A stretch of 64,000 nucleotides of DNA from an uncultured cyanobacterium (lineage in GTDB: Bacteria > Cyanobacteriota > Cyanobacteriia > Phormidesmidales > Phormidesmidaceae). Location of the stretch: the NCBI GenBank assembly GCA_963793265.1, contig CAWBZI010000001.1:992001-1056000 (forward strand). The letters are read 5' to 3'. A model generated the notes under the pieces. It searched no databases. It saw only the letters and a program-made list of their open reading frames with translations, and was not told the DNA's origin. The translations under genes and the position numbers were made by a program. Below are positions 8,281 through 52,932 of the stretch, one piece after another. The stretch's first letter is position 1. Every line of letters starts with the position of its first letter.

Positions 8281-8562
8281 GTGATTCGGAGCTTTAAGGA
8301 TAAGGAAACTCAAAAAATATTTGAGCGAGTGCGATCGCGCAAGATTCCTTCGGATATTCAGCAAGTCGCCTTAAGGAAGCTAAGAATGCTCAACCGTGCA
8401 GAGACACTTCAAGACCTTCGTGTACCACCAGCTAATCGTCTAGAGCGTCTTGTTGGCAATCGAAAAGATCAATACAGCATCCGAATTAATAATCAATGGC
8501 GAGTCTGCTTTGAGTGGCAAGACGGTGATGCCTTTGATGTAGGGATAGTTGACTACCACTGA
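8281..8562 (+). CDS. higB: HigB (RelE/ParE family) toxin
   Basis: MIRSFKDKET..RKLRML..DLRVPPANRLERL..YSIRINNQWRVCF..IVDYH. Confidence 0.93.
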   Translation: MIRSFKDKETQKIFERVRSRKIPSDIQQVALRKLRMLNRAETLQDLRVPPANRLERLVGNRKDQYSIRINNQWRVCFEWQDGDAFDVGIVDYH

Positions 8563-8572
8563 GGTTTTAACA

Positions 8573-8881
8573 ATGAGTGTAGATAAGTTGAGTCCTATTC
8601 ATCCTGGCGAAGTGCTTCTCGAAGAGTTCTTAAAGCCTATGAACCTTAGTCAAAACCAGATGGCGTTGGCTTTGCGGGTGCCAGCGCGGCGCATCAATGA
8701 GATTGTTCATGGAAAGCGTAGAGTCACAGCAGATACAGCGCTTCGATTAGCACGCTATTTTAATATGTCGCCTCGCTTTTGGTTAGGGTTGCAGATGGAC
8801 TACGATTTAGATATTACTGAAGATGCCGTAGGCGAACAGTTAGATAAAGAAGTTGCTGTTTTGACACCTGATGAGCGATAG
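8573..8881 (+). CDS. higA: HigA antitoxin (HTH)
   Basis: IHPGEVLLEEFL..RINEIVHGKRRVTADTALRLARYF..FWLGLQ; toxin-first gene order. Confidence 0.93.
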   Translation: MSVDKLSPIHPGEVLLEEFLKPMNLSQNQMALALRVPARRINEIVHGKRRVTADTALRLARYFNMSPRFWLGLQMDYDLDITEDAVGEQLDKEVAVLTPDER

Positions 8882-8942: not shown

Positions 8943-9422
8943 ATGACTGCAAAACTATCCACAGATAGCCTGACAGAATTGTATGATTGCGATGTCGCCC
9001 TCTGGTCGGAGCGGACGGTGGAGCTGTTGCGGCAGGGAAGGTTTGATGAACTGGATTTGGAGAATTTGATTGATGAGGTGGGTGACTTGGGTAGACGAGA
9101 GCGCGATCGCCTAATAAGCTCTATTCGCCTAATCATGCACCACCTCTTAAAGTGGGAACACCAGCCAGAAAAACGTTCTCGTAGCTGGATCAAGACCATT
9201 CAGCGCGAACGAATAAACGTTCAAAGCTATTTAGAGGATACGCCTAGCTTAGTAAGAATATTTGATGCTGAGTGGATGGATAAAGCCTATCGAACGGCTC
9301 GAAAGCAGGCTGCGGTTGAGACAGATTTGCCACTTGAGACGTTTCCACAGCAGTGCCCTTACCAGTGGGCGCAAGTGTTGGAAGACGGTTTTCCAGAAGA
9401 TTTGACTGATGAGCAAAGTTAA
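8943..9422 (+). CDS. DUF29 family protein
   Basis: LYDCDVALW..LDLENLIDEV..HLLKW..RSRSW..FPQQCPY. Confidence 0.9.
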   Translation: MTAKLSTDSLTELYDCDVALWSERTVELLRQGRFDELDLENLIDEVGDLGRRERDRLISSIRLIMHHLLKWEHQPEKRSRSWIKTIQRERINVQSYLEDTPSLVRIFDAEWMDKAYRTARKQAAVETDLPLETFPQQCPYQWAQVLEDGFPEDLTDEQS

Positions 9423-9429
9423 AATTCAG

Positions 9430-10864
9430 CTACAGACTTTCAATCGCACTTCCTAGCTTTGCATGTTTGATGTCACCCCAACGTTGCCCGGACTTGCATT
9501 TTTTAGAGGCAAGTTGCTCAGCGATATCGGCTGAAATTACGACGCGAGCAGGGGCTAGCTGGTTGAGAGATCTGGCGAGTTGGTAGTGATGCGACTGGCA
9601 GAGTAGATTTTCGAGCCGTTGAGCGATTCTTCTTTGGATAGGCTTCGCCAGCTCACACCCCTCAGCCTTATCCAATAGCAAAACATAATGCGCCTTCGGC
9701 TTCATCACGGGCGTCAAGCTCTGAAACCCTGATGCAGGTAGATTCAAGCGATCTATCACATCGCTAACGAACTGAATGTGGAGCTTTTCACCGACCAAAT
9801 CACTGACATCTTTGCCACGTCCGACAAATTTGAGGCAGGGTGTTTTGAGAAAATAGTGCGTGACTTGTACGCGATCGCCCATCCGATACCGGTAGAGCCC
9901 ACCCATTTGAGAAACAATCATCTCATAAGTGTCTCTTTCATTAAGCTGGTGCAGCTCATAAATATCACCCTTTCTATCTTCAAACTCAAAGAAAATCTCG
10001 TCTAGTAAAGGCACCTGGCCCTTAGCGGCAATCAGTGGAACGGTCATCGGCGCTTCGGTAGCAAGAAGTCCCTTCCCTTGAATTAAAACATCGGGAAAGT
10101 GCTGTCGTAGGCTACCGGCACCATCGGCGGCGGTGGCACTGTCCCAACAGGAAATGAGCTTTAGGTGGGGCCATTGCTCGGCGTAGGGAATTTTGGATTG
10201 AATGTAGTCTAGCTGGGCGGTTAGAAAGCTAGGGCTCCAAACGGAGATGATTTCTAAGTCTTTGGTTTGTAGGAGGGTTTTGGCCAGATTTTCTTTGAAG
10301 GCTTTGGGCGATCGCGCAGTCGGCGCAATGACTAAAAACGGTTTTAGCAGCCAGCGTAACCAAGGATCAAGATAGTCAGCATCATCTGTTGTACCTGTAG
10401 AATTTGATTTACTAAAGCTGGGCGAAATAGAGAAATAGAGCTTACCTTTTGAAAACTTAGGGCCGTGCCTAATCAAATCGTGTGCCCATACGCAAAATAG
10501 ATGGTTGAATGAGCGGCGTAGGGAGCGAGTGTATGGAATTTGTTTTACAGGGCCGCTGCTGCCTGATGTGGGTTCGTAGAACAAAATGCGTTCCGGCGTA
10601 AGCGGGCTGGTGTGTGCCGTAGAGCGCTCGATCCAAGGTTGCAGGTCTTCATAGCTCACAATCGGTAGCCGGTGCCAGTCTTCGAGGCTACGCATGTTAA
10701 ACTGTTGGCCATATTCACAAGCTTTAAGCTGCTTGATTAAGCGCTGTTGTACCTTTTGCTGAGCCTGTTGAGGATTCGCTAGTGCTTTGTGAAATCGTTT
10801 GGAAGCAGGGGCTAGCAGGTAGGCGAAAGACTTTTATCCAGCTACGGATGAGGATGTTTCGCAT
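9430..10864 (-). CDS. GH3-family acyl-adenylate/amide ligase (frameshift near 10825)
   Basis: EPTSGSSG, GLLATEA, GGLYRYRMGD, FVGRG..DLVGEKL; the frame stays open upstream (YLLAPASKRFHKALANPQQAQ) and joins ATG 10864 with a one-base deletion. Confidence 0.85.
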
Positions 10865-11511
10865 GGGGTTTCGCTTGCTTGAGGAGAGGGCTGAGGATTC
10901 TGTTGATTGGGGAATAGGTCGCTGGTGACGGGTACCCAGTCGCCTGCTGCGATGACAACGCCGGGGCCGAGGCGAGAGGCTGAGCCGATGAAAGCGCCTG
11001 CACCAATTTTGATGGGATTGATGTAGAGCATCAGGTCTTGGCGTTTGGGTTTGATGACGTGGGCGTATAGGCCGACCTGATGACCGATGATGGCGTGATC
11101 GCCCACCTCCAAAAGCCCCCGATCTGCAATCTCCAATCCCGGTGCCCAGTACACCTGCTGCCCTACTTTCGCGCCCCATAGCCGTAACCACGCTGAAAAT
11201 GCGCCCGGTATAAGCCGCAGGATCGTTTCAAGCATTGGGAAAGCAATATAAACGAGCTGAATTTGATGAGCGCCCCACCACGGAGAATAATCATCGCCCT
11301 GTAAATAGCTAATGCCTTTGATAACGGGATAGAACCGATTGTGTAGTCGATAGACAAACAGCGGAAAGCCGTAGAGAGAAAATAATAGGAGACTTAACCA
11401 TAATATAATTTCTAATACGCTATTAGCGAGGCACAACCGTAGTAAGGAAAGTCCTGTCAGTGTGATCGCGACTGTGGGAAATAGCGAGAGTAATCGGCTA
11501 AGTAGTGTCAT
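10834..11511 (-). CDS. Membrane-anchored hexapeptide-repeat acyltransferase
   Basis: Two N-terminal TM segments; LRLWGAKVG, EVGDHAIIG, KIGAGAFIG..LGPGVVI left-handed beta-helix repeats. Confidence 0.8.
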   Translation of the reverse strand: MTLLSRLLSLFPTVAITLTGLSLLRLCLANSVLEIILWLSLLLFSLYGFPLFVYRLHNRFYPVIKGISYLQGDDYSPWWGAHQIQLVYIAFPMLETILRLIPGAFSAWLRLWGAKVGQQVYWAPGLEIADRGLLEVGDHAIIGHQVGLYAHVIKPKRQDLMLYINPIKIGAGAFIGSASRLGPGVVIAAGDWVPVTSDLFPNQQNPQPSPQASETPCETSSSVAG

Positions 11512-12254
11512 GACAATTTAAAAGGGTAGAACAGCTTTTGCCACAAAGTCAGCGATGTTTTTATCCCTAGAACGGCTGGTAGACTAATAGTGTTTTGTGC
11601 CGTACCGTGCAGCCGATCCCACAGTTTGAGATTAGCGCCAAAATTGCAGTTGTGGTTTTGTTGTCCGTGGTGACCGGCATGGTCTTGAGGCAGTATGAGC
11701 CAGGGTGAGAGTAGGAAATAGAGAAAGCTGTTAGGATTTGGCCCTAACTGAGAGTGTCGCCACAGGTCAAGTACGGCGGTTAGAGTGATGCCCCATAGAT
11801 AGCCGCTTGGATCTTGGAGTAAGTACAGCATGAGCGCGTGAATCCATAGGTACAGGATAAAAAAGCTGCTCCACAGGCTGTTTCGAGAGGTGCCTAATAC
11901 GTCTAGCTGCGTTACGGTGTGGTGCACCTGATGGAGGGGCCAGCCTTTTGTGTGTAGCCAGCGGTGATTCCAGTAGTAGGCATAGTCTACGACAACAACG
12001 CAGAATAAAAAGCTGAATAGTGGCGGCAGCGTGAGGCGGTGAGCAACGTGAGGAAATAGAAAATGCAAAGTGGTGGACAACAATCCAATTTGTAGCGCTG
12101 GAATCAGTACACCTTGAATGATCAAGCCGCTAACGTCTAGAATCCATTCGGCTTTAGGCTTATGGCGTAGCCGTTGCCAGTTGCCAGATCGCTTTATGCT
12201 AAGACCTATTAATAGCCAAAAGGTGATGAATATAGGCAGATCGAAGGGTGTCAT
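11508..12254 (-). CDS. Sterol desaturase / fatty-acid hydroxylase family protein
   Basis: His boxes YYWNHRWLH, HQVHH, HAGHH; NFGANLKLWDRLHGT. Confidence 0.88.
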   Translation of the reverse strand: MTPFDLPIFITFWLLIGLSIKRSGNWQRLRHKPKAEWILDVSGLIIQGVLIPALQIGLLSTTLHFLFPHVAHRLTLPPLFSFLFCVVVVDYAYYWNHRWLHTKGWPLHQVHHTVTQLDVLGTSRNSLWSSFFILYLWIHALMLYLLQDPSGYLWGITLTAVLDLWRHSQLGPNPNSFLYFLLSPWLILPQDHAGHHGQQNHNCNFGANLKLWDRLHGTAQNTISLPAVLGIKTSLTLWQKLFYPFKLS

Positions 12255-12257
12255 AGC

Positions 12258-13284
12258 TTATACCCAGAAGGTGATTTTGGCTGATTGGTTGGGAAGTTCG
12301 CGAGGGTCTTTGCCTTGAGCGATCGCATCTCGAATCGACTCCACAAACACGTGAATAGTGTCAGCAGGCGTATGCGTAAACCGTTCGCCATATTTGTTGA
12401 TTGTTTCACTTTGCAGCTTCAAAGCTGCGATGTCTTGGCTAATAATTTTTTGAGCCGTCCAGCGCACAAACGGGCGGGCCAACTGGTTCCAAATGCCGTA
12501 GTTGAAAGTTACGTCTGTGTAAACGAGGGTAGTAGTATCGCTTTCAGGAACGGATTGACTGGTGATGAAGCAGCGGCGCGGTTGTCCCAAAGTTTGGCCC
12601 ATGTCGTACTCTACGCTGGTGATGTTCGGCATTAGAAAACGGTCTACATGAACAATCTCTTTGCCCTGCGGATTTAAGAACCAGCCGAACCAACCAAGAT
12701 TGTCTGTCTCTTGGTGATAGGTAGCGGTGACGGTGCCATGACTTCTCTCTACGCTCATCTGTAGCGGCTGCTGCTTTGTCTGGCGAAAGATGCCGGGATG
12801 AACAGAGACAGTGTGAGGAATGTCGATGAAAGTTTTCAGCGCAGTTGGTGACCGTGTTTTGAAAGCGGTTAATGACGCGGACAGTTGACCAGTCTGGGGA
12901 CTGGTAGTGAGGCATGATGAAAGGGTCTGATGATGGTTGGGAGAGGCAAACGTAGATGTAGCCGTCTTGTTCTTTGGTGGCGTAGGCGATCGCCCCGCGA
13001 GATACTTTCGCACATGGGTTTTCCCCTTCAGCAGGAACCGCCACCACTTTGCCAGCGCGATCATATTGCCAGCCATGATAAGGGCACTGAACTTTACCCG
13101 CTTTGACTTTGCCAGCAGAAAGACGGCTGTTGCGATGAATGCAGCGATCTTGCAAGGCAACTGGTTTGTTGTTCTCATCACGAAAGATAACGAGCCACTC
13201 GTCTAAGATGGTTCGCGCTAAGGCTGTTTTTTCGGTGAGCTGTTCGCTTTGGGCCACGACATACCAAAAGTTTGAGAAGTTCAT
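12258..13284 (-). CDS. Rieske non-heme iron oxygenase (frameshift near 12830)
   Basis: CIHR..CPYH Rieske motif; ENFIDIPHTVSVH iron-site motif is restored by removing one T. Confidence 0.85.
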
Positions 13285-13565
13285 GTCTTTAGCGGCGAAA
13301 GGGAAAGGTCGCCAGTCGCGTGAATTTGGCAGGCTAGACGGACAGCAGGATTTTGAGGTGCGAGAATGCTGAGGACTTCTTTTTCTTCGGAAGTCGGTGG
13401 CAGGAGTTCACCTGTAGCGGATACGAGACAAGTGCCACAGATACCAGTGCGACAGCCGAAAAGAATAGGTGAGTTTTGAAGCGTGAGCGCGATTGAAAGG
13501 GGCTGATTATTAATAGTGACGGCGGGATATTGGCTGTCAGGGAAGTGAACGATGTGAGAGTTCAT
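13281..13565 (-). CDS. 2Fe-2S ferredoxin
   Basis: GCRTGICGTC...RLACQ; ATGA overlaps with both neighbours. Confidence 0.88.
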   Translation of the reverse strand: MNSHIVHFPDSQYPAVTINNQPLSIALTLQNSPILFGCRTGICGTCLVSATGELLPPTSEEKEVLSILAPQNPAVRLACQIHATGDLSLSPLKT

Positions 13566-14554
13566 GCTTGCTTTGACCATTGAGAGGGAATTAAGTCGTT
13601 TACGTATCTGATGTATTCCGTTAAGGGGCGGTCGATAGGCAACAGGTTTTGTGGATTGAACTGAATGTTGTCGTATATTTGGCCATCTTCACCACGTAGA
13701 GCGTAGTAACAGAGTTGAGTGAGGAGCAATAGCATTGTGTTTATCAGCCAGCCAATCGGGCCTTTGCGCTTACGGGTGACGTAGATCGGCTGTATGCGTG
13801 TGCCGCCTGAAGCGAGGGGAACGTAGGCATATAACAAATGGAGCGGCGGTAGGAAGCGCACGTTTTTCATCATGGTTAGCAGCCCTACGCAGCCATGTGA
13901 ATAGCGCATGGAATAGGTATAGGTGTGGCCCAGTATTTTTTGACCGATGCCTGTGGGTAAGTCTCCGGTGAGGGTGAAGTCAATCTGGCCCTTTTCATCT
14001 TCCCGATCTAAAGAGAGTGACATATCGACAGGCAGATTATGCACAGTCTGTAAATGCTGCACGTCGATGCCGTTCATCATACAGATGTGGTGATGGCATT
14101 TACGTTCCAGGGTTTTATCGGCGCGGGTGATGATTTCGTGGCCTTTGAGTTCGTCAAATTCGGGGAGGCTTGAGGGGGCGATCGCATCAGGATAAACCCA
14201 AACAAACCCATACTTCTCTTCGGTCGCATAAGCCTGAAGCCTCGCGTTCGCGGGTATGTGCGACTGACAGGGAATCTGTTGACAAACGCCCGACTCGTCA
14301 AAAGCCCAATGGTGAAAAAAGCAGCGGGCTTGATTACCCACCACGTCGCCAATGCCTAAATCTGTGCCCATGTGCGGACAGTAGGCGTCGAGCGATCGCA
14401 CCCTTCCATCCTCACCTCTAAACACCGCAATCCGCTGGCCGCACACATCGAAAGACTGAATGCTTTTAACAGGCAAAGCATCACTAGCACAAACGATATA
14501 CCAGCCTTTTACAACAACATCAGGATTATTGAAAATAGTCAGCCCCATAGTCAT
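13562..14554 (-). CDS. Rieske non-heme iron oxygenase
   Basis: CPHMG..CFFH; NGIDVQHLQTVH; C-terminal EDGQIY. Confidence 0.9.
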   Translation of the reverse strand: MTMGLTIFNNPDVVVKGWYIVCASDALPVKSIQSFDVCGQRIAVFRGEDGRVRSLDAYCPHMGTDLGIGDVVGNQARCFFHHWAFDESGVCQQIPCQSHIPANARLQAYATEEKYGFVWVYPDAIAPSSLPEFDELKGHEIITRADKTLERKCHHHICMMNGIDVQHLQTVHNLPVDMSLSLDREDEKGQIDFTLTGDLPTGIGQKILGHTYTYSMRYSHGCVGLLTMMKNVRFLPPLHLLYAYVPLASGGTRIQPIYVTRKRKGPIGWLINTMLLLLTQLCYYALRGEDGQIYDNIQFNPQNLLPIDRPLTEYIRYVNDLIPSQWSKQA

Positions 14555-15720
14555 TCTCCTTTTGCTTTCAAAAATCTGGGCAAAGCTCGCCGTTGCACTG
14601 CTAGATAGCTTTCTACTGATGCTTTAGCCATAACAGCCATTTGTTGATTGCTCGGCCAAATGTAGGTAAGCGGTGCGATATACGCCCGGTAGGCGCTCAT
14701 TGCTTCGTAGTGAGTCTGATAGCTTTGATGCAGTCCTTCCGACTCTTGGGTAAAGCACTGCTGCATCATCTCCTTAGTTTGTTGTATGTCGAGTGCAAAA
14801 AGAGGCGATCGCAATAATCTATAAACCGTTTCATACAGGCCAGGATCGTGCCAAAAAATGCCGTTAATAACCACAGAAAACGTAGAATGGTCGCGCTGAC
14901 AACCACGAATGCCTAAGTTTGCAATCTGTCGCTCAAGCTTAGTTGGTGCATCCAAACAGTTAATGACCTCTTGAGAAATGAGCGTAGAGCTATTGAAGTG
15001 AAAGCTTTCGTCTAAGAAATGATAGTGAGAAACCTGGCTAGGAATCGGCGCAGAGTCAGCGTCATTAGCACAATATTGGCTGAGCTGATGCTGTACGAGC
15101 TTACCGTTTAGCGTACGCAGGCCGCGCACCGTAAAATACTGACAGGCGAGAAACGTGTTGCTTGCCGATACAAGTCCAAAAACCTGTAGCTGTAGCTGCT
15201 TCCATTTCTTTTTTAGCTCGCTAGTATCAGCAAATAGCATCGTTTCAGTAAACGGGCCGCGCATCGGATAGCTGAATAAAGGCGAATCAAACAGGGCGGC
15301 TTCTGTGCGACGGGCAATCGTTTGAAAGGCTTCAATATGCGTACGTTCCTGAACAGATTCGAGGTCTAACATATTGCAGATATCGCTAAAACCTGCATGG
15401 GCGTAGAGCCCGGTGGCACTGGTTTGATTGAAGTAGATAGTCGCAATTTCAGCGGAGATAATTTGGGAGTAGTAGGCAACCCAGTAAAGATGATTGAGGG
15501 TTCGGCGCTGGTCTTCGGTGGCTTGCTCCCATAGCGGCGTACCGTAGAGAAGAGAGAACTTTTCAGACTGCCAGTATTGATCTTTGCAGTCTTCATAGCA
15601 GAAGTCTCGTGCTGTTTCCTTCAGCTTTTCGGTTTGATCTTGCTGCTGGTTTCGTCGGTAGTTGAGCTGAATTTTTCGGTTTAATAAATCTGTTGTAGGA
15701 CGTGCTGCGGTGGCAATCAT
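14551..15720 (-). CDS. AurF/CylC-like dimetal-carboxylate enzyme (possible halogenase or N-oxygenase)
   Basis: SAEIAT, QERTH and HFLDESFH ferritin-like ligand motifs; N-terminal SLLYGTPLWEQAT..LNHLYW. Confidence 0.75.
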   Translation of the reverse strand: MIATAARPTTDLLNRKIQLNYRRNQQQDQTEKLKETARDFCYEDCKDQYWQSEKFSLLYGTPLWEQATEDQRRTLNHLYWVAYYSQIISAEIATIYFNQTSATGLYAHAGFSDICNMLDLESVQERTHIEAFQTIARRTEAALFDSPLFSYPMRGPFTETMLFADTSELKKKWKQLQLQVFGLVSASNTFLACQYFTVRGLRTLNGKLVQHQLSQYCANDADSAPIPSQVSHYHFLDESFHFNSSTLISQEVINCLDAPTKLERQIANLGIRGCQRDHSTFSVVINGIFWHDPGLYETVYRLLRSPLFALDIQQTKEMMQQCFTQESEGLHQSYQTHYEAMSAYRAYIAPLTYIWPSNQQMAVMAKASVESYLAVQRRALPRFLKAKGE

Positions 15721-15721
15721 T

Positions 15722-16636
15722 TTATAAAGTGCCTTCGACTAGGCACTGAGAAGGGGGCAGTGGGGAAAATAAGCTTTTGCTGTCTAAGATTTCTGCGATA
15801 CTGGGGGCGGTTGGGGCGATGAGCGATCGCAACAAACTCAACCTTCGCCCACTATGCCTTTCTGTCTCTAACTCTGATAGCGTCGTGACAGCTTGAGTGC
15901 GAGAAAGTCCGCCTTTTGTAAGAGCGATCGCGCCCAAAACCCGCTGCGGCCCAACTCTCACCATCTGTAAAAAGGCCGCTAGCGTATCCACAATTGCATT
16001 CTGGCTAGCAGCAGTCAGCCTATCACTATCAAACAGCGTCACACCTGCGCTATGGTGCTTTGCCTCAGCCTGTAAAAAGCTATGGAACATTTTAGACAGC
16101 TCAGGATTGCAACAGCTTTTACTTAGCGAGCGGTAGTGGCTGAGTCCCCAGCCTTCTAATACGACTTGAATGACGAATATTAGAACTGTGCGATCGCTCT
16201 TTTCTAAAAGAGACTCTAGAATCTGTAAAAAAGGATCGTAGGTGCTTAAGTGATCGCGAATCAGCGGCTTTAACTGCGCCAAATGCATTGCCTCATCGGC
16301 GCTAAATAACGCATATAGCATTCTCTCCTCAGTCGTCTCAGCCATCAGCGTCATTTTCGACATGTAGCCAACGCCCGCCTTTTCAATAAAGCATGACTCA
16401 GACAAGAGCCCTTGACTGGCAATCTGCAAAATTTGGGTTTGTTCTTCAGCAGAAGACTCTTGAAAAAGAGACACTGAATTCAAACCAAAAGATTCCGCAT
16501 TCCAAGGCGGCTCGCATAGCGGATCTATTGCCTTCGTCTGCCTGTCTCTCAGCGCGGCATCTAGAATCTTATTAAGCTTGTGATTAGGTGTGATCGCCGG
16601 TAGATCTAATCCTGCAATAGAAGACATATTTTTCAT
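15722..16636 (-). CDS. Ferritin-like diiron protein
   Basis: IEKAG, DEAMH, LEGWG, AEAKH (E..ExxH..E..ExxH pattern). Confidence 0.8.
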   Translation of the reverse strand: MKNMSSIAGLDLPAITPNHKLNKILDAALRDRQTKAIDPLCEPPWNAESFGLNSVSLFQESSAEEQTQILQIASQGLLSESCFIEKAGVGYMSKMTLMAETTEERMLYALFSADEAMHLAQLKPLIRDHLSTYDPFLQILESLLEKSDRTVLIFVIQVVLEGWGLSHYRSLSKSCCNPELSKMFHSFLQAEAKHHSAGVTLFDSDRLTAASQNAIVDTLAAFLQMVRVGPQRVLGAIALTKGGLSRTQAVTTLSELETERHSGRRLSLLRSLIAPTAPSIAEILDSKSLFSPLPPSQCLVEGTL

Positions 16637-17635
16637 GTGACTCGGCTCCAGGTTTTCCAATTCAACGCAGGCTGTTGTTCTACGTGTTTTACAAACTCTA
16701 GAATGGACGCATCCGCTTGAATGGGCGCTTTGAAGTCAAACTTGATGCTATCGAAAACTTCGCGATCACCCTTCGCAAAATAACTCGCCACCCCTTTCGT
16801 AATCGCCAGCCGCACCCGATTAAACAACCAGCCACCGACTCCTCGACCGCTTAGGCGTCAACAATACCACCCATCCCTCAGTCATACCGCCTGCCGCCGG
16901 ACGCAGCGCAAACATCAAATAAAAGTTAAGGAAGTCTGGCCCCACCGTCACCGTGCCCGTACTGCCATACCAATAACAAAGCCGGTACGTCACCGCCTCA
17001 GGATACAGAGGCCGAATGAGTTTTACAAACTTAGAAGCCTCACCGCCCCGCGTCGTATTACGAAAGGTCAGTGCGCTTTCATTTAGCGCCTTTGTTTCAA
17101 ACCGAATCTCTAAGGGTAAATCGTGCACCGAATTAAAATGATGCGCGTCAATCGCGTTAATCAGCACGACATTAGGATGACAGTTGCGCTTAAAAAATCC
17201 GCTTAAAGCCGAATCGCACTCGCAGTTCTCAAGTTCAGGTACATACGGCAAAGGTAACTTCTCACTTTCTCCTACCCATACCCAAACCAAACCATAGCGC
17301 TCAGCAGTCGGCCAAGATTTCACCGTTCTATCCGGCAGTGAAGAGAACCCCGGCGCTGCCACACACTCACCACATTCATCGAATTTCCAACAGTGCAGCG
17401 GACAGCGAATCTGCCCCTTTTCTACCGTTCCTTGAGCCAGCGGCGCGCCTAAATGAGGACAGTAGGCATCCAGCGCAACCGGCTCATCTGTTTGGTTACG
17501 ATAGAGAACTAAATCCCTTCCCAACAAAGTTACAGCCTGCGGACGAGACTTTAACTCTTTTGAAGGAATTGCCCAATACCAGCCCTGAGCAAACCGTTCA
17601 GCCTGATTAAAAATCTTAGCTGATACCGTTTTCAT
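16633..17635 (-). CDS. Rieske non-heme iron oxygenase (frameshift near 16848)
   Basis: CPHLG..CPLH; NAIDAHHFNSVH; C-terminus GWLFNRVRLAITKGVASYFAKGD continues in the neighbouring frame. Confidence 0.85.
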
Positions 17636-17638
17636 AGG

Positions 17639-18391
17639 TCACGTCCTCGGGGTAGCTCGCAGAGGCAAAGCGGCCTCAGACGATTGCGACGAATCACCAA
17701 ACCACATTCGTCGCCCGGCCCGCGTCAAGTTATCTTCCGAAATCTCTGTCAAACACACCAACTCATCTCCCCGATCTGCCCCCGGATTCTGTTGTGCAAA
17801 AAATCGAACATGTGGATTACGCAATCGCTCGGGCGGAATGCCTTCCAAATGGCCTCTAAGCTGCTGAGGGGCGGGCAAGCGAACAACACCCGCCGCTTCG
17901 TCATACCATTCGCCAAACTGACGGCGACAGAGAAACTGCATAAGGCGGCGAGACTTTGATGGGATAGGCCGATCATGGCGAGGGTAAAAGGTTTGCCAAA
18001 ACGTCGGCATAAATCGGTAGGTGCGAAAGCCCGATGAAATCAAGAGCCAGTAGAGTTTGGCACCTTCGTATTGTTCTTTTAGCTGATTGACGGCGGCTAT
18101 CCAGGCTACAGACAGCGCTGAGCTTGACCACACGCTCGGATCAACAATCGTATCACCCGAATACACAACGGTAATCAGCTCGCCTTCAAAGGTGATGTCA
18201 TACATCAGTAACGTTGAGAATCCTTTTAGCGCCCGGCTTTCATCTTTTAGCAGCAGCACCCAATTTTTTAGGCCGAGATCGGTTTCAAACACCTCTGGCG
18301 TCGCCCCAGCAAAGTGAGCGTTCAACAAACCATACATAGCCGCTTTGTCTGTGGCTGTGAGCGCGGTGGTTTTGATCAGTTCGGTTTGCAT
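17639..18391 (-). CDS. Hypothetical protein, probable GNAT-like acyltransferase; first gene of the operon
   Basis: LKGFST..VVYSGDTIVDP..YWLLISSGFRTYRF; the fold assignment is inference. Confidence 0.6.
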   Translation of the reverse strand: MQTELIKTTALTATDKAAMYGLLNAHFAGATPEVFETDLGLKNWVLLLKDESRALKGFSTLLMYDITFEGELITVVYSGDTIVDPSVWSSSALSVAWIAAVNQLKEQYEGAKLYWLLISSGFRTYRFMPTFWQTFYPRHDRPIPSKSRRLMQFLCRRQFGEWYDEAAGVVRLPAPQQLRGHLEGIPPERLRNPHVRFFAQQNPGADRGDELVCLTEISEDNLTRAGRRMWFGDSSQSSEAALPLRATPRT

Positions 18392-18546: not shown

Positions 18547-18909
18547 CTAAATGTAATAAGACTGCTGCGCGACTACCCAGATTATCAGCGCCGCGATCGC
18601 CCCACCCAAACACAGAACCAAAGCCCAGATTAGCCAGCCCTCACGGCCAGTCGATTGCGCCTCAGCTTCAGCCGTTTCATTCTCAAGATGCTGCTTTACC
18701 AAGCCCGGCACCAAATGCGGCTGCACATGCAGACACCACGTTTTCTCAGGCACCATCAAAACCGTTGGCCCGCTACCGCACTGACCCAAACACCCAGAGG
18801 CTTCCACCTCAGTTCCTTCAGGCACAGTCTTCTCAAACGCCTTCAGCACCTTTTTAGCGCCCTGCTTTGTACAAGTTGTATTTTGGCAAACAAGTACCTT
18901 GTGATCCAT
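18547..18909 (-). CDS. Thioredoxin-like (2Fe-2S) ferredoxin with C-terminal TM
   Basis: VCQNTTC..SGCLGQCGSGP; hydrophobic tail. Confidence 0.85.
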   Translation of the reverse strand: MDHKVLVCQNTTCTKQGAKKVLKAFEKTVPEGTEVEASGCLGQCGSGPTVLMVPEKTWCLHVQPHLVPGLVKQHLENETAEAEAQSTGREGWLIWALVLCLGGAIAALIIWVVAQQSYYI

Positions 18910-18949
18910 TTAACCCGTCCGTTTAAGCAGTTTTGCAAAAGACAGCTCT

Positions 18950-19855
18950 CTAAGCGTCTGCCAATAGCTCCAAAAAGCCTTTGAGCGTCGCTGAGTTATA
19001 GTCTGCTCGCCAAACTGCCAGCATTTTTCGAGTTAAGTCTAGCCCAGAAATCTCTCGATAAACGACACCCTTACGATGCAAATTTAAAACGTTGCTGGGC
19101 AAAATAGCCAGCCCCACGCCCGCCGCCACCAGGCTCAAAATCGTCAGCATCCAGGTAGCATCTACAAGCTGAGGCTGAAATCCCGCCGTCTCACAAGCTT
19201 CTACAAACGCCTGATAAAAAGGGAATGCCTGAACGTTTGGCACAATCAAAGGCTCCTCTGCTAGCGCAACCAGTTCAACAGCGTTTTGACTAGCGAGCGG
19301 ATGATCCTCAGGGAGGGCTAAAACCAAAGTTTCTTCAGCGACCACCTGCCAGTGCAGTCCTCGATTGTCTAGCTGTAAGGGTGAAATTACCTCGAAGCCA
19401 ATGTCTAGCTGGCCCGTTGCGATCGCTTCAATTTGCGCCTCGGCAGTGAGTTCATTAAACGTAAAAGTGACTTGAGGATAGCGATCGCGAAACCGTCGCA
19501 ACAAATCAGGAAAAACACTATTCGCCGCCGAACTCGCTAGCCCTATCGTCAAATGCCCAATATCGCCCTGAGCCGCGCGTTTAGCCTGTGCCAGCGCCTG
19601 CTCAATCTGTTCCATCGCCCGCGTAGCCTCTGTCAAAAAGACTTTTCCCGCTGGCGTCAAATGCACCGGACGCTTACGCCGATCGAACAGTGTCACCTTC
19701 AGCTTTTTCTCCAAAGCCTTAATCCGCTGACTCAACGGCGGCTGTTCAATATGTAGCCGCTCCGCCGCCTGACTAAAGCTATTGTCACACTCTACCACCA
19801 TCAAAAAATAACAGATTTGCCGAATTTCTAGGCTGCTTAACTTTAGTAAGTCCAT
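18950..19855 (-). CDS. LysR-family transcriptional regulator
   Basis: SFSQAAERLHIEQPPLSQRIKALE HTH; LVAAGVGLAILP. Confidence 0.95.
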   Translation of the reverse strand: MDLLKLSSLEIRQICYFLMVVECDNSFSQAAERLHIEQPPLSQRIKALEKKLKVTLFDRRKRPVHLTPAGKVFLTEATRAMEQIEQALAQAKRAAQGDIGHLTIGLASSAANSVFPDLLRRFRDRYPQVTFTFNELTAEAQIEAIATGQLDIGFEVISPLQLDNRGLHWQVVAEETLVLALPEDHPLASQNAVELVALAEEPLIVPNVQAFPFYQAFVEACETAGFQPQLVDATWMLTILSLVAAGVGLAILPSNVLNLHRKGVVYREISGLDLTRKMLAVWRADYNSATLKGFLELLADA

Positions 19856-46419: not shown

Positions 46420-47922
46420 TTAGTTTGAAATATCAAATTTACTATACAAAAATTCCAATGTCTCTTCGTCTCTAAGCCTACAGATCGTCCCTACATGCGC
46501 AAATAAGCCCGTAGCCCAGAGAGCCTGCTCCTTCGGCAGCGTCTTCAGCCAATCCACACGCGCCACCCATTCCGACAGTTCTAAATTGTTGCTGTTTTGC
46601 GCGAGTCCTTCCGCCTCTAAATCCATATCAAGCAGCGGCGTATTTTCCGAACCCACCGTAAATGATTTAATAGGCACCGCTGCCTCGACAACCCTGCCAT
46701 AGCCGACATAGCCTCTACCACCCACATAAGCAAAAAAGGTGCTGCCTACCTCCAGTTTTCGCATAGCAGCCGCAAGCTTTGCGCTCTGCCCCGCACTAAT
46801 AAATCCATACTTCTGACAGTCCGCCCAAGACCTTTGGTTTTTACCCACTCCTACATTAATAAACCAATCGCCAATCCACTCTATTTTAAGTTCTTCACTC
46901 TCTCCACCGTTTTCAGCACCTATTGAATTTTCGCTGCTAAACTCTTTGCGCAAGAAATCTAGAGTTCTCTTATGCCTGAGCTTGCATACCACGTTCGGGT
47001 TTGCAAACGCGCCAACAAACCGGTGGGCTTCCTGCTTCGGAAAAGTTTTGAGCCACTTTACACCAACAACCCATTCTGAGAGTTCTAAGTTATCACTGTT
47101 TTCGGCAGGCTTCTCCGCTCTCAATTTCACATTCAGCAGAGGTGTATTTTCTTGTCCTACAGTAAACTCTTTAATAGGAACGGCTTGCTTGATAACTTCG
47201 CCCTGACCAACGTACCCTAAGCCTGAGATGTAGGCATAGATCGTACTACCAACATTCAAATTTTTAAGAGCATTAGAATAGACTGAGCCCTGTCCTGCGC
47301 TAATGAATCCATATTTTACGCAGTCCTCCCAAGTTCGGTAGTCGCCCTCGCCTACGTTAACAAACCAGTCTCCTGCCCATACTAAGTTTTCCACAGGAGG
47401 GCGCTCACGCTCTTTTACCGAGATCTCAAACTCGTTTTCTTCCGAATCTTCGCTATCTTCAATAGAAGGAGAGGCTATCTCATCATCGTTTGAAGAAGAC
47501 AATGAGGTAGCGTTGTCCGCTGTTATATGCAAATTAGATAGATACAAATTGACTTCTTCAAAGAAAGATTCTGGGGGTAGCAAGCCGTCTCTTGCATCAA
47601 AATGCTGAATATTGGCAACATTGAACCACCGCTCATCTTCCAAAAGAATAGGAAATATTTTCTTCTTCTGCTCTAGCGCAATAATTAATTCGCAATCTAC
47701 CCAGTGAGACTCAAGAGAACGAGGCGTCATAACAACTACAAAAACATGACACGCTTTTAGGTGCTTCCAAATCTCTTTTGCCCAAGACCTAGTACCTGGG
47801 GAGATCTGATCGTCCATCCAAACAGACAAACCTTTCACCCTAAAGGCCTCGGCTATTTGTTTTGCATATTTTTGATCCTGGCGGCTATAGCTAACAAAAA
47901 TAAATGGTGATGCTTTAGACAT
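46420..47922 (-). CDS. TIR domain protein with two tandem EVE/PUA-like domains
   Basis: IFVSYSRQD, VWMD, SHWVDCE TIR motifs; acidic linker; two repeats of about 147 aa (approx. 47379-46939 and 46878-46432). Confidence 0.8.
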   Translation of the reverse strand: MSKASPFIFVSYSRQDQKYAKQIAEAFRVKGLSVWMDDQISPGTRSWAKEIWKHLKACHVFVVVMTPRSLESHWVDCELIIALEQKKKIFPILLEDERWFNVANIQHFDARDGLLPPESFFEEVNLYLSNLHITADNATSLSSSNDDEIASPSIEDSEDSEENEFEISVKERERPPVENLVWAGDWFVNVGEGDYRTWEDCVKYGFISAGQGSVYSNALKNLNVGSTIYAYISGLGYVGQGEVIKQAVPIKEFTVGQENTPLLNVKLRAEKPAENSDNLELSEWVVGVKWLKTFPKQEAHRFVGAFANPNVVCKLRHKRTLDFLRKEFSSENSIGAENGGESEELKIEWIGDWFINVGVGKNQRSWADCQKYGFISAGQSAKLAAAMRKLEVGSTFFAYVGGRGYVGYGRVVEAAVPIKSFTVGSENTPLLDMDLEAEGLAQNSNNLELSEWVARVDWLKTLPKEQALWATGLFAHVGTICRLRDEETLEFLYSKFDISN

Positions 47923-48427: not shown

Positions 48428-50632
48428 CTAGCCGAATCGACTAGACGTTGACGCAATCAAGAAGGCGGCGTAGGTCAGAATGTATCCCACCGTAAAGTGA
48501 GCCAGACCGATCAAGCGACCTTGAACAATAGACATTGCAACCGGCTTGTCCTTCCAACGAACCAGGTTAGCCAAAGGCGTACGCTCATGAGCCCAAACGA
48601 GGGTTTCAATAAGCTCTTGCCAATAACCACGCCAGGAGATGAGGAACATAAATCCAGTCGCCCAAACCAGGTGTCCAAAGAGGAACATCCAAGCCCAAAC
48701 AGCCAAATTATTCATCCCGTAGGGGTTATAGCCGTTGATTAGCTGAGAAGAGTTCAGCCAGAGATAGTCTCGCAGCCAGCCCATGAGGTAGTTAGAACTC
48801 TCATTGAACTGAGCGACGTTACCACTCCAAATCGACAGATGCTTCCAGTGCCAGTAAAAGGTCACCCAGCCAATGGTGTTGAGCATCCAGAACATCGCCA
48901 GGTAGAACGAATCCCACGCTGAGATGTCACAGGTGCCGCCACGACCAGGGCCGTCGCAAGGGAAGCTAAAGCCGAAGTCCTTTTTGTCGGGCATGAGCTT
49001 AGAGCCACGGCCATCCAACGCACCTTTGACCAAGATCAAAGTGGTGGTGTGCAGGCCGAGAGCGATCGCATGGTGAACCAAGAAGTCACCAGGCCCAATT
49101 GCCAAGAACAAAGAGTTGCTACCGCTGTTAATCGCATCCATCCAACCAGGGAGCCAAACGCCACTAGCAGCAGCATTGGCAACACTATCAGGGTTAGAAA
49201 GTAGCGTATCAAAGCCGTAAAGCGCTTTACCAGAAGCCGCCTGTACAAACTGTGCGAACACAGGCTCTACGAGGATTTGCTTCTCAGGGGTACCAAAGGC
49301 AACCACAACGTCGTTATGGACGTAGAGTCCGAGCGTGTGGAAACCGAGGAACAAAGAAACCCAGCTCAGGTGAGAGATGATTGCTTCTTTGTGGTCGAGC
49401 ACTCGTGCGAGCACGTTGTTCTCATTCGCCGCAGGATCGTAGTCCCGAATCAAGAAGATTGCACCGTGAGCAAATGCCCCCACCATGATGAAGCCAGCAA
49501 TGTACTGGTGGTGAGTGTATAGCGCAGCCTGAGTAGTGAAGTCCTGAGCCATGAAGGCATAAGGAGGCAGCGCATACATGTGCTGAGCAACCAGAGACGT
49601 GATAACGCCCAAAGAAGCCAGCGCCAAAGCAAGCTGGAAGTGCAGCGAGTTGTTCAACGTGTCGTAAAGACCGGTGTGACCTGCACCCAAACCGCCATTA
49701 GGAGGACGGTGAGTGTTCAGAATCTCTTTGATGCTGTGACCAATACCGAAGTTCGTCCGGTACATGTGGCCAGCAATGATGAAGATGACCGCGATCGCCA
49801 GATGGTGATGCGCCATATCCGTCAGCCACAAAGATTGCGTCTGAGGATGGAAGCCACCCAAGAAGGTCAAAATCGCGTCGCCAGAACCCGTAGAAGTACC
49901 AAAGAGATGGCCAGCCGTATCAGGGTTTTGGGCGTAAGCGCCCCAATTGCCTGTAAAGAACGGTCTTAGACCCTCGGGGTGAGGCTTCATCGTCAGGAAG
50001 TTATCCCAGCCGACATGCACACCGCGAGACTCAGGAATCGCTACGTGAACAAGGTGGCCCGTCCAAGCCAAAGAGCTGACGCCGAACAAACCAGCCAGGT
50101 GGTGGTTGAGGCGAGATTCAGCATTCTTAAACCAGGACAAGCTAGGGCGAAACTTGGGCTGAAGGTGTAGCCAACCTGCAAACAGCATCACTGCTGCGAG
50201 GCCAAGCAGACCGACTGCGCCAGTATACAAATCGCCGTTCGTGCGCATCCCGATGGTGTACCACCAGTGATAAACGCCCGAGTAAGCAATGTTCACAGGC
50301 GTGCTAGAGCCAGCTTGGCTAAAAGCATCGACTGCGGCCTGACCAAAGTGAGGATCCCAAATCGCGTGGGCGATGGGCTTCACATTGAGCGGGTCTTGAA
50401 TCCACTGAGGAAAGTTGCCTTGCCAAGCGACGTGGAACAGGTTGCCAGAAGTCCACAGGAAGATGATCGCCAGGTGACCGAAGTGAGAAGCAAAAATCTT
50501 TTGGTAAAGATTCTCTTCTGTCATCCCGTCATGGGTTTCAAAGTCGTGAGCTGTCGCAATCCCGTACCAGATCCGACGAGTTGTCGGATCTTGTGCCAGG
50601 CTTTGGCTAAATTTTGGAAATTTAGTTGCCAT
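48428..50632 (-). CDS. psaB: Photosystem I core protein PsaB
   Basis: [37 protein letters not shown]. Confidence 0.99.
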
Positions 50633-50657
50633 ACGTTTTTAGAGTCCTCCGCGCTCC

Positions 50658-52932
50658 TTAACCTACTGATATCATTCGAGCCAGGAAGAACGCCCATGTG
50701 GTGGCAATTCCGCCTAAGAGGTAGTGAGCTACACCGACTGCACGGCCTTGAGTAATACTCAACGCGCGTGGCTGAATCGCCGGAGCTACTTTCAGCTTGT
50801 TGTGAGCCCAAACAATAGACTCAATAAGCTCCTGCCAGTAGCCGCGACCGCTGAACAAGAACATGAGGCTGAAGGCCCAGATGAAGTGGGCACCTAAGAA
50901 CATCAAACCGTAGGCCGACAAAGCCGAGCCGTAGGTGTTGATGACCTGCGTGGCTTGCGCCCACAGGTAGTCGCGCAGCCAACCGTTGATGGTGATTGCA
51001 CTTGCGGCAAAGTTGCCGCCGGTAATATGAGAAACCGTGCCGTTATCAGAGACGGTGCCCCACACGTCTGACTGCATCTTCCAACTGAAGTGGAAAATTA
51101 CAATCGAGATGGAGTTGTACATCCAGAACAAGCCAAGGAACACGTGATCCCAAGCTGATACTTGGCAGGTGCCGCCACGACCGGGGCCGTCGCAAGGGAA
51201 TCGGAAGCCCAGTTCAGCCTTATCAGGAATAAGGCGAGAGCTACGCGAATACAGCACACCCTTAAGCAGGATGAGTACGGTCACGTGAATGGTGAACGCG
51301 TGAATGTGGTGAACCATGAAGTCAGCGGTGCCAAGCGTGATTGGCATCATCGCAACCTTGCCGCCCACAGCTACCACGTCGCCGCCAAAGGCATAGCTCG
51401 CAGGAGCAAGTGCGTTAGGCGCGGTGCCAGCAGCAGCGGTTGCAGCAGTGTGCAATCCCTGAATCCACTGGGCGAAGATGGGCTGAAGCTGAATCGCCGT
51501 GTCTGAGAACATGTCTTGGGGGCGACCCAATGCCTGCATGGTGTCGTTGTGAATGTATAGGCCAAAGCTGTGGAAGCCAAGGAAAATACAGACCCAGTTG
51601 AGGTGAGAGATGATCGCATCGCGGACTCTAAGCGTACGGTCGAGCACGTTGTTGACATGCTTGGCCGGGTCGTAGTCGCGAATCAGGGCGATCGCTCCGT
51701 GAGCCCCAGCACCGACGATGATAAATCCACCAATCCACATGTGATGAGTGAACAGCGACACTTGAGTCGCGTAGTCAGTCGCCAGGTAAGGATACGGCGG
51801 CATCGCATACATATGCTGAGCCACGATGATAGTGAGCGAGCCGAGCAAAGCGAGGTTAATCGCAAGCTGAGCGTGCCAGGAAGTCGTCAAGAAGTCGTAT
51901 AGACCCTTGTGACCTTCACCACCAAACAAAAGCGGATCGCCTTTGTGGTTGTCTAAAATCTGCTTGATATTGTGACCAATGCCCCAGTTAGTGCGGTACA
52001 TATGGCCCGCAACTAAAAATAGAACAGCGATCGCCAGGTGATGGTGAGCCGAATCAGTCAGCCACAGACCGCCCGTCACCGGGTTCAATCCACCTTTGAA
52101 GGTAAGAAAGTCTGAGTAGACCGCCCAGTTCAGCGTAAAGAAGGGCTTCAAGCCTTCTGCAAAACCAGGATAAAGCTCAGCCATAAAGGCTTTGTCAAAC
52201 AAGAATTCGTGAGGCAGCGGAATGTCCGCAGGCGCCACGCCCGCATCCAACAGTTTGTTGATGGGCGCGGCTACGTGAATCTGGTGGCCTGCCCAAGACA
52301 GTGAACCCAAGCCCAGCAGTACAGCCAGGTGGTGGTTCAGCATGGATTCCACGTTTTGGAACCACTCCAGCTTCGGAGCTGCCTTGTGGTAATGGAACCA
52401 GCCAGCAAACAGCATCAAAGCCGCCATTACCAAGCCGCCAATTGCGGTGGCGTAGAGCTGAGTTGTGTTTGTAAAGCCAGAGGCGCGCCAGAGCTGAAAC
52501 AGACCAGACGTGATCTGAATGCCGTGGAAGCCGCCGCCGACATCAGCGTTCAAGATCTCTTGGCCAACGATGGGCCAAACGACCTGAGCACTAGGCTTAA
52601 CAGCCAACGGGTTGGCCATCCAACCTTCAAAGTTTGAAAAGCGAGCGCCATGGAAGTACATGCCACTCAGCCAGATGAACACAACGGCCAGGTGACCGAA
52701 GTGAGCGCTAAAGATTTTCCGAGAAATGTCTTCGAGGTCACTGGTGTGGGTATCGAAGTCGTGAGCGTCGGCGTGAAGGTTCCAAATCCAAGTGGTAGTT
52801 TTGGGTGCCCCGAGCCAGTGTCCGGTCAAAATGACCTGGCTTGGCCCACTTCTCAAACGAAGTGGGGGTCGGGTTCTTATCAACCACTACCTTGGCTTTT
52901 TTTGCCTCCCGCTCGCGCGGGGTAGTTGTCAT
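50658..52932 (-). CDS. psaA: Photosystem I core protein PsaA (frameshift near 52807)
   Basis: [28 protein letters not shown] joins [18 protein letters not shown] after deleting one base; [18 protein letters not shown]. Confidence 0.97.

Follow-up and report, generated by a model that had tools for sequence, protein, structure and literature searches.

The ten-gene operon

A 64,000-nucleotide stretch from an uncultured cyanobacterium of the Phormidesmidaceae (assembly GCA_963793265.1, contig CAWBZI010000001.1, positions 992,001 to 1,056,000; hereafter the window) carries at positions 9430-18391 of its minus strand a run of ten genes, g1 to g10, dominated by iron-dependent oxidative enzymes. 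The gene g1 lies most 5′, at the 18391 end, and g10 comes last. Three of the genes contain a frame break and are described as read through.

g1, 17639..18391, minus strand: GNAT-fold acyltransferase without a Pfam family, 250 amino acids
g2, 16633..17635, minus strand: Rieske oxygenase 1, 334 amino acids read through; Pfam Rieske, E 1.6e-22
g3, 15722..16636, minus strand: ferritin-like diiron enzyme, 304 amino acids; Ferritin_2, E 0.008, below cut-off
g4, 14551..15720, minus strand: CylC-like dimetal-carboxylate enzyme of the Rieske-cluster clade, 389 amino acids; Pfam AurF, E 1.4e-8
g5, 13562..14554, minus strand: Rieske oxygenase 2, 330 amino acids; Pfam Rieske, E 3.2e-20
g6, 13281..13565, minus strand: [2Fe-2S] ferredoxin, 94 amino acids; Pfam Fer2, cysteines C38, C43, C46 and C79
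g7, 12258..13284, minus strand: Rieske oxygenase 3, catalytic domain of the VanA type, 341 amino acids read through; Rieske and VanA_C matched in two frames
g8, 11508..12254, minus strand: membrane protein of the fatty-acid-hydroxylase/sterol-desaturase family, 248 amino acids; Pfam FA_hydroxylase, E 9e-24
g9, 10834..11511, minus strand: membrane-anchored hexapeptide-repeat acyltransferase, 225 amino acids; Pfam Hexapep, below cut-off
g10, 9430..10864, minus strand: GH3-family acyl-adenylating ligase, 477 amino acids read through; Pfam GH3, GH3_M and GH3_C

The junctions from g1/g2 to g9/g10 measure +3, -4, +1, -4, -4, -4, +3, -4 and -31 bp, and five of the nine are ATGA couplings. A preliminary description had proposed ten co-oriented, tightly coupled genes in this order, and its account of the layout holds: all ten lie on the minus strand in the order given, its family labels agree with Pfam and NCBIfam scans and, for g1, with a fold comparison, and the six iron-dependent oxidative enzymes that it counted are three Rieske proteins, two ferritin-like diiron proteins and one membrane protein with histidine boxes. 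The absence that it noted of polyketide synthase (PKS), non-ribosomal peptide synthetase (NRPS), acyl carrier protein (ACP) or fatty acyl-AMP ligase (FAAL) genes was likewise borne out, since tblastn with one query per class matched nothing in the window and nothing in 160 related loci, a search that is weak for short ACPs; the four queries were taken from the FAAL-PKS cluster of this same genome. The guanine-cytosine (GC) content is 0.49 in the operon and 0.50-0.51 in the genome, and promoter and terminator scans gave results at chance level (10 vs 9.1 and 15 vs 11.0, respectively).

The operon is real and conserved. When 185,579 species genomes were scanned, 377 relatives of g4 turned up, and the best 80 among them were examined; the nearest relatives bearing a name belong to Phormidesmis. 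The exact ten-gene order, whose absence elsewhere would have spoken against the preliminary description, recurs in 29 of these 80 loci, many of which are cut by contig ends, and a further 10 full-length loci show the same order with g5 moved upstream of g1. Next to g4, the 80 loci contain g3 in 76 cases, g2 in 71, g1 in 67, g5 in 66, g6 in 64, g7 in 62, g8 in 57, g9 in 53 and g10 in 50. Metagenomes contributed 221 g4 relatives, of which 80 were retained and gene content counted in the 44 loci longer than 9 kb. Among 23 distant metagenome loci (g4 below 57% identity; GC 0.32-0.68) the gene order is rearranged, with g6 and g7 present in all 23, g8, g9 and g10 in 21, g2 in 18, g3 in 17 and g1 in 14. 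Among 151 evenly drawn cyanobacterial genomes, a g4 of the Rieske clade occurs in 18, and a close g10 in the same 18; as these counts include kin, they are not independent and carry no statistical test. The gene g1 is found in those 18 and in two genomes that keep g1, g3 and a more distant GH3 elsewhere, so that g1 coincides with a GH3 gene in 20 of 20 cases; five further genomes give weak or partial GH3 matches and have no g1.

Some neighbours of the cluster recur. An amidohydrolase gene and/or an Mpo1-like gene (2-hydroxy-fatty-acid dioxygenase family) accompanies 13 of the 80 genome loci and 10 of the 23 distant loci, and an SDR gene stands beside the cluster in 12 of the latter. The amidohydrolase is fused to an Mpo1-like domain at L077:15003-17174 and L136:5919-8066, examples from cyanobacterial and distant loci. 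Directly after g4, nine of the 80 loci encode a hydrophobic protein of 150 amino acids without a Pfam match (for example L025:11205-11651, L089:3994-4452 and L215:14075-14524), which was not found in this genome. Homologues of g4 also occur without the rest of the cluster, at 63% identity in the metagenome loci L141, L143 and L144, and at 35% identity beside a g6-like ferredoxin in genome G143 (L212:9879-11380).

Properties of the encoded proteins

The protein g1 has no match in Pfam or NCBIfam, and when solved structures were searched with profiles of g1 and g3, neither gave a significant hit. Judged from its AlphaFold2 model (predicted local distance difference test score 90.6, from a 57-row alignment), g1 is a GNAT by fold. 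Every match listed by Foldseek is a GNAT (best E 3.8e-6), VIA-align gives a top Z of 11.8, with LasI at 11.0, RpaI at 10.8, FeeM at 10.6 and many other GNATs within about 1, and in the Atlas comparison g1 reaches 0.98 to a cluster named GNAT.

All three Rieske proteins retain the ligands of the cluster and of the mononuclear iron, and they are similar to oxygenases of the single-subunit kind, for example KshA, SxtT and DdmC. In g2 the CxH..CxxH and DxxHxxxxH motifs and the distal Asp290 region are present, and KshA is the nearest solved structure to an intact g2 orthologue (E 1.4e-22). The protein g5, a paralogue of g2 at about 30% identity, is nearest to SxtDIOX/SxtT and KshA over its N-terminal half only, while an intact g7 orthologue is nearest to SxtDIOX and DdmC. 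In g3 a complete site of four glutamates and two histidines (E85, E115xxH118, E161, E191xxH194) is invariant in 60 of 60 aligned rows, and the Atlas scores are 0.97 to Ferritin_2 and 0.93-0.94 to AurF and FA_desaturase_2 clusters. A recent duplication as the origin of g3 and g4 was considered and rejected, as their profiles do not align (probability 0.3%).

Among the membrane proteins, g8 has three histidine boxes, at 97, 108 and 192, and four hydrophobic segments, and matches the OlsE model with E 4.6e-13, far below the OlsE cut-off. The protein g9, hydrophobic at residues 10-54, matches WcaF (E 3.9e-10) and the terminal domain of Pls/PosA (E 2.4e-10), both below cut-off. The ligase g10 is the sole GH3 protein of the genome; its N, M and C domains are present, and its three nucleotide-binding motifs are kept in at least 97% of 48 rows.

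Integrity of the operon in this genome

In this assembly a single surplus base interrupts the frame of each of g2, g7 and g10, near positions 16840, 12830 and 10825, respectively. A comparison with four of eight listed public runs, from two studies, found near-identical contigs (95-99% or more alike) without the extra bases: the one near 10825 is missing in the only run that bridges the position, the one at 12828/12832 in three runs from two studies, and the one near 16840 in two runs from two studies; one and the same run lacks all three. The breaks are therefore quite probably assembly errors.

That this copy should instead be a decaying pseudo-operon, whatever its intact relatives make, is unlikely, but the reading is retained because this genus is losing the cluster. 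A close g4 is present in six of 36 other genomes of the genus; the nearest relative, G020, shows only g1-g5, g6-g10 not being found in the 60 kb around them; and in genome G151 a GH3 fragment is all that remains at the site, next to the same flanking genes. Broken genes also appear enriched, at three of ten in the operon compared with seven of 210 other orthologues (P about 0.004 if independent). However, background breaks cluster as well. Of 211 orthologues of G020 genes checked in this genome, in 20 stretches, eight have a frame change, g2 among them, and four of the other seven fall within one 8-kb stretch; seven further orthologues have an internal stop. Moreover, the three broken operon genes have no in-frame stops and intact catalytic motifs, and each break is a single extra base missing from near-identical contigs. 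Elsewhere in the genome, on contig C6, four adjoining genes hold six frame changes (G000:C6:49373-57223), which suggests a locally error-rich stretch of the assembly.

Relation to published clusters

Among 95 clusters with CylC homologues, 36 have been described as "Rieske-containing" and as having no known product (Eusebio et al. 2021, PMC8406957). Clusters of this class encode between two and four Rieske proteins and a single CylC homologue, in most cases a sterol desaturase as well, and no carrier, and the class has been proposed to act possibly on intermediates of fatty-acid metabolism. The preliminary description had mentioned orphan clusters of this kind, and the operon is a member of the class: it encodes three Rieske proteins, with g4 as the single CylC homologue and g8 as the sterol-desaturase-family gene, and has no ACP, FAAL, PKS or NRPS matches. 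The acyltransferases and the occurrence of non-cyanobacterial members are also shared, the g4 clade including a member labelled Bdellovibrionia. Nothing essential differs, and the term GH3 has 0 occurrences in the main text of that paper.

An earlier paper had delineated a "cluster f" around fed6, consisting of a hypothetical gene, a Rieske gene, two hypothetical genes, fed6, a pobA-type Rieske gene, a sterol desaturase gene and a further hypothetical gene (Cassier-Chauvat and Chauvat 2014, PMC4284462). This order corresponds to g1, g2, g3, g4, g6, g7, g8 and g9; the cluster f core omits g5 and g10, and no function is proposed for it in the parts cited. As the cluster class was thus catalogued in 2014 and again in 2021, the architecture is not new; what is added here is the assignment of g1 as a GNAT, the linkage of GNAT and GH3 and a sharper hypothesis.

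From its matching place in cluster f, g6 is likely a ferredoxin of the fed6/Fdx6 type, and it is likely the electron donor of the system. The same paper called fed6 essential. An essential housekeeping role is nevertheless rejected, since fx6 was later fully deleted (PMC8887894) and the cluster is patchily distributed (18 of 151 genomes); a recent preprint likewise describes Fdx6 as non-essential and its function as unconfirmed (10.64898/2026.04.08.717189). Phosphate limitation induces ssl2559 (fed6) (PMC11126600), a weak hint, as such induction is expected of phosphorus-free lipids. No product of the cluster is reported in the open-licence literature covered by a non-exhaustive search, which left subscription papers outside its scope and had missed the OlsH paper discussed below.

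A proposed GNAT-GH3 module and a putative carrier-free pathway

Ferredoxins supply Rieske and diiron enzymes with electrons, and acyl-AMP chemistry is known from the GH3 family. A precedent for a bacterial GH3 enzyme is OlsH from Singulisphaera acidiphila, which makes N-acyl-ornithine from a free fatty acid, ornithine and ATP, after which the O-acyltransferase OlsI, an alpha/beta hydrolase, completes the ornithine lipid; loss of the serine in motif 1 kills OlsH (PMC12493201). All three OlsH motifs, including the motif-1 serine, are retained in g10. The two systems share a bacterial GH3 enzyme without a carrier, the same motifs and an acyltransferase partner. They differ in that the partner OlsI is an alpha/beta hydrolase, whereas the operon has a GNAT, a hexapeptide enzyme and six added iron enzymes; no OlsI-type alpha/beta hydrolase was found among the ten genes or their conserved neighbours. 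By analogy, the missing carrier would be explained if g10 were the activator, because OlsH uses a free fatty acid.

Relatives of g1 outside the cyanobacteria link it to GH3 as well. A plasmid collection yielded 12 records with g1 homologues, four of which were examined. In three of the four, from Citrobacter, Acinetobacter and Burkholderia, a g10-type GH3 gene is adjacent to the g1 homologue or within 5 kb of it, and none of these three records has a match to the Rieske or diiron genes. On the Citrobacter plasmid NZ_CP134684 (L203/L206, 51417-63512) the g1 homologue (36% identity) overlaps the g10 homologue (31%). The surrounding cluster, which is uncharacterised, differs from the operon in that five B12 radical-SAM genes and a second GNAT replace the Rieske and diiron enzymes, and it also includes PAP2, NTF2/SnoaL and desaturase genes. 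The Burkholderia record has desaturases, PAP2 and a second GNAT near its g1 homologue and GH3, so that fatty-acid desaturase and PAP2 genes occur in two of the three records. The Acinetobacter baumannii record (NZ_CP064203; L204:6102-14876) has HlyD and MFS efflux genes, the g1 homologue and its GH3, as well as genes for an outer-membrane efflux protein, a second GNAT and SurE. Homologues of the Citrobacter NTF2/SnoaL and PAP2 genes stand beside g4 in seven and six, respectively, of the 23 distant metagenome loci. On this comparison of gene content, the chances are about even that g1 and GH3 form a shared scaffold module, that its tailoring can be swapped and that it makes an acyl amide, probably a lipid. 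A GH3 gene in a different setting was observed in Streptomyces (L207:11836-13506, NZ_CP027299), within a PKS-P450-aminotransferase-thrS cluster; this we take to resemble the borrelidin cluster and BorL.

For the operon itself, carrier-free amino-lipid synthesis with heavy O2-dependent tailoring is the best explanation, held with evenly balanced confidence. In the proposed pathway, g10 would activate a free fatty acid by adenylation and couple the acyl group to an amino acid or another amine. Further acyl groups would be added by g1, the GNAT, and by g9, the hexapeptide enzyme of the membrane. The six iron enzymes, with g6 likely supplying electrons, would introduce hydroxyl groups, double bonds and possibly chlorine into the product. 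The scheme presumes that all enzymes act on one molecule and that this molecule is a lipid; the step order, the amine and any chlorination are presumed likewise. Turnover of an N-(2-hydroxyacyl) amide would fit the amidohydrolase and Mpo1-like neighbours. The preliminary description had envisaged a heavily oxidised, possibly halogenated acyl amide or lipid formed from a free or membrane-bound substrate. An oxidised acyl amide or lipid from a free substrate is supported by the OlsH precedent, the GNAT-GH3 linkage and the lipid-type accessory genes in relatives; halogenation is possible but unproven. A sphingolipid variant, with the GNAT as ceramide synthase, was dropped, as no serine-palmitoyltransferase-like gene lies among the conserved neighbours.

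The dimetal-carboxylate enzyme g4

The metal-binding motifs of g4 are E91, Q124-E125xxH128 and H234xxD237-E238xxH241. QExxH and HxxDExxH motifs have been assigned to dimetal halogenases (Wang et al. 2025, PMC12101540), and g4 has both, together with the glutamate of the first helix, as do CylC and NocO; it thereby shares their set of three histidines and three glutamates with an open site. It differs from them in being shorter and without the central insertion, and in having a glutamine at the position of CylC E283, no ACP or FAAL nearby and a place in a separate long-branch clade. This glutamine, Q210, in the column of CylC E283 and AurF E196, is found in all 80 orthologues from genome loci and all 80 from metagenome loci, whereas FAAL/PKS-type homologues, including a paralogue on contig C6 of this genome, have glutamate. 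In a midpoint-rooted tree of 28 rows, from which long-branch rows and the sequences of PMC8406957 were left out, the g4 clade makes up the 14 rows on one side of a branch with 100/100 support and about 1.9 changes per column.

The preliminary description had considered both AurF-type N-oxygenation and halogenation. The former is unlikely on the ligand set, as Gln124 replaces D135 of the AurF DExxH motif and Gln210 the seventh ligand, E196. Chlorination by g4 is possible but unproven; it is left open because glutamine replaces glutamate in all 160 orthologues despite the kept motifs. With a probability only a little short of even, the glutamine clade hydroxylates or desaturates on the same scaffold and the product is halogen-free, an alternative that concerns a single step and is compatible with the amino-lipid pathway. 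It draws on the invariance of Q210, on the length of the branch and on the lack of an ACP or FAAL, whereas CylC and NocO act on ACP thioesters (PMC12101540); in addition, halide depletion of Nostoc punctiforme gave, in the section of the study considered, no nitrogen-containing chlorinated feature (PMC10849952). Against it stand the fully retained QExxH and HxxDExxH motifs with the open-site ligand set, as well as the placement by Wang et al. of the E283-type glutamate outside the first sphere, with glutamine noted in a subset of untested homologues.

The contig C6 paralogue (G000:C6:687666-696295) is a second CylC-type gene, 29% identical to g4 and with glutamate in the E283 column. As labelled from translations only, it belongs to what looks like a FAAL-CylC-PKS-ACP-NRPS cluster, after which come open reading frames of glycosyltransferase-like, SDR and oxidoreductase type.

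Alternative products

Several observations weigh against an amino-lipid. The product is read from gene content; GH3 and GNAT folds accept many substrates, and in VIA-align FeeM and LasI (Z 10.6-11.0, against a top of 11.8) are about level with acetyltransferases as matches to g1. The operon has no OlsI-type hydrolase, and the closest matches to its three Rieske enzymes are oxygenases of steroids, saxitoxin and aromatic compounds rather than enzymes that act on lipid chains. An Azospirillum g1 homologue (26-27% identity), the fourth record examined, has no GH3 within 9 kb, and the Acinetobacter module inside an efflux operon suggests an exported small molecule. With a patchy distribution (18 of 151 genomes) and a deletable fed6, the cluster is no core membrane pathway. 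Finally, the sole unassigned chlorolipid reported for a species listed as having the cluster has no nitrogen. This compound, C31H59O2Cl, is the one chlorinated feature unrelated to the ngl cluster that halide depletion of N. punctiforme ATCC 29133 revealed; it is chloride-dependent and persists in an ngl deletion (PMC10849952), and Nostoc punctiforme is listed with fed6 cluster f' (PMC4284462). Its lack of nitrogen argues against the main product being a chlorinated amide. The formula has two double-bond equivalents by arithmetic and would fit an ester of a C16 acyl group with a C15 chloro-chain that has one additional unsaturation. The compound offers the sole chemical indication of chlorination by the g4 clade and is a candidate link to the cluster, albeit a rather improbable one. 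A nitrogen-free chlorinated ester such as C31H59O2Cl as the product of the operon is equally doubtful. On such a route the GH3 enzyme would only activate the acid, g3 or a Rieske enzyme would shorten C16 to C15, g4 would chlorinate, and g1 or g9 would esterify. The behaviour of the compound in N. punctiforme, its unsaturation count and the Mpo1-like genes for chain shortening that accompany the cluster favour this route; however, two oxygens are few for six oxidases, and GH3 enzymes with known reactions form amides.

Amide formation is kept if the product is a diffusible signal or antibiotic, resembling a plant-hormone conjugate or an N-acyl amino acid, rather than a membrane lipid. GH3 enzymes conjugate jasmonate, auxin and benzoates, the g1 fold is common to LasI, RpaI and FeeM, and both the co-location of the Acinetobacter module with EmrA/EmrB/TolC-type genes and the patchy distribution point the same way. 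Yet the conserved neighbours in the 80 cyanobacterial loci include no transporter, the enzymes g8 and g9 belong to the membrane, and the PAP2, desaturase and Mpo1-like partners point to lipids, so that a signal of this type appears unlikely, with perhaps one chance in five. A catabolic role, in which the cluster would activate and oxidise an external aromatic or steroid-like acid, is far less probable still: the resemblance of the Rieske enzymes to KshA, DdmC and demethylases and the amidohydrolase and SDR partners are offset by two acyltransferases and an amide ligase within the operon, by a lack of ring-cleavage or uptake genes among the conserved neighbours and by hosts that are mostly photoautotrophs.

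Implications

Taken to its full extent, the amino-lipid proposal would make g1 and g10 the scaffold-forming core of a hitherto undescribed, cross-phylum GH3 amino-lipid family with swappable tailoring (O2-dependent iron enzymes or B12 radical-SAM enzymes), g4 a carrier-free dimetal halogenase and C31H59O2Cl a product or shunt. This combination is speculative and, as a whole, unlikely; if true, g4 would be the first dimetal halogenase working without a carrier protein. Chlorination of a free or membrane substrate by g4 would provide the carrier-independent aliphatic halogenase that biocatalysis lacks; if g4 does not chlorinate, the Glu/Gln switch would mark the boundary between halogenation and oxygenation in the family. 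Should the amino-lipid reading be true, Fdx6 would gain a client pathway. The Rieske-containing class is the most abundant CylC-homologue cluster in cyanobacteria (36 of 95, PMC8406957) and lacks a product, and the proposed role of GH3 as activator together with a named candidate metabolite makes the question directly testable in tractable strains.

Genomic neighbourhood

Upstream of g1 and on the same strand, window positions 18547-19855 encode a LysR regulator and a thioredoxin-like [2Fe-2S] ferredoxin whose C-terminal tail is hydrophobic. Both genes were considered as operon members and rejected, being neighbours in 0 of 80 loci; they are retained in G020 and G151. Beyond the other end, a DUF29 gene (8943-9422) is convergent with g10 and follows a pair of HigB-like toxin and HTH antitoxin genes (8281-8881). 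The window is cyanobacterial and includes psaA/psaB at 48428-52883. Adjoining psaAB, positions 46420-47922 encode a TIR-domain protein of 500 amino acids in a low-GC stretch (0.44-0.46).

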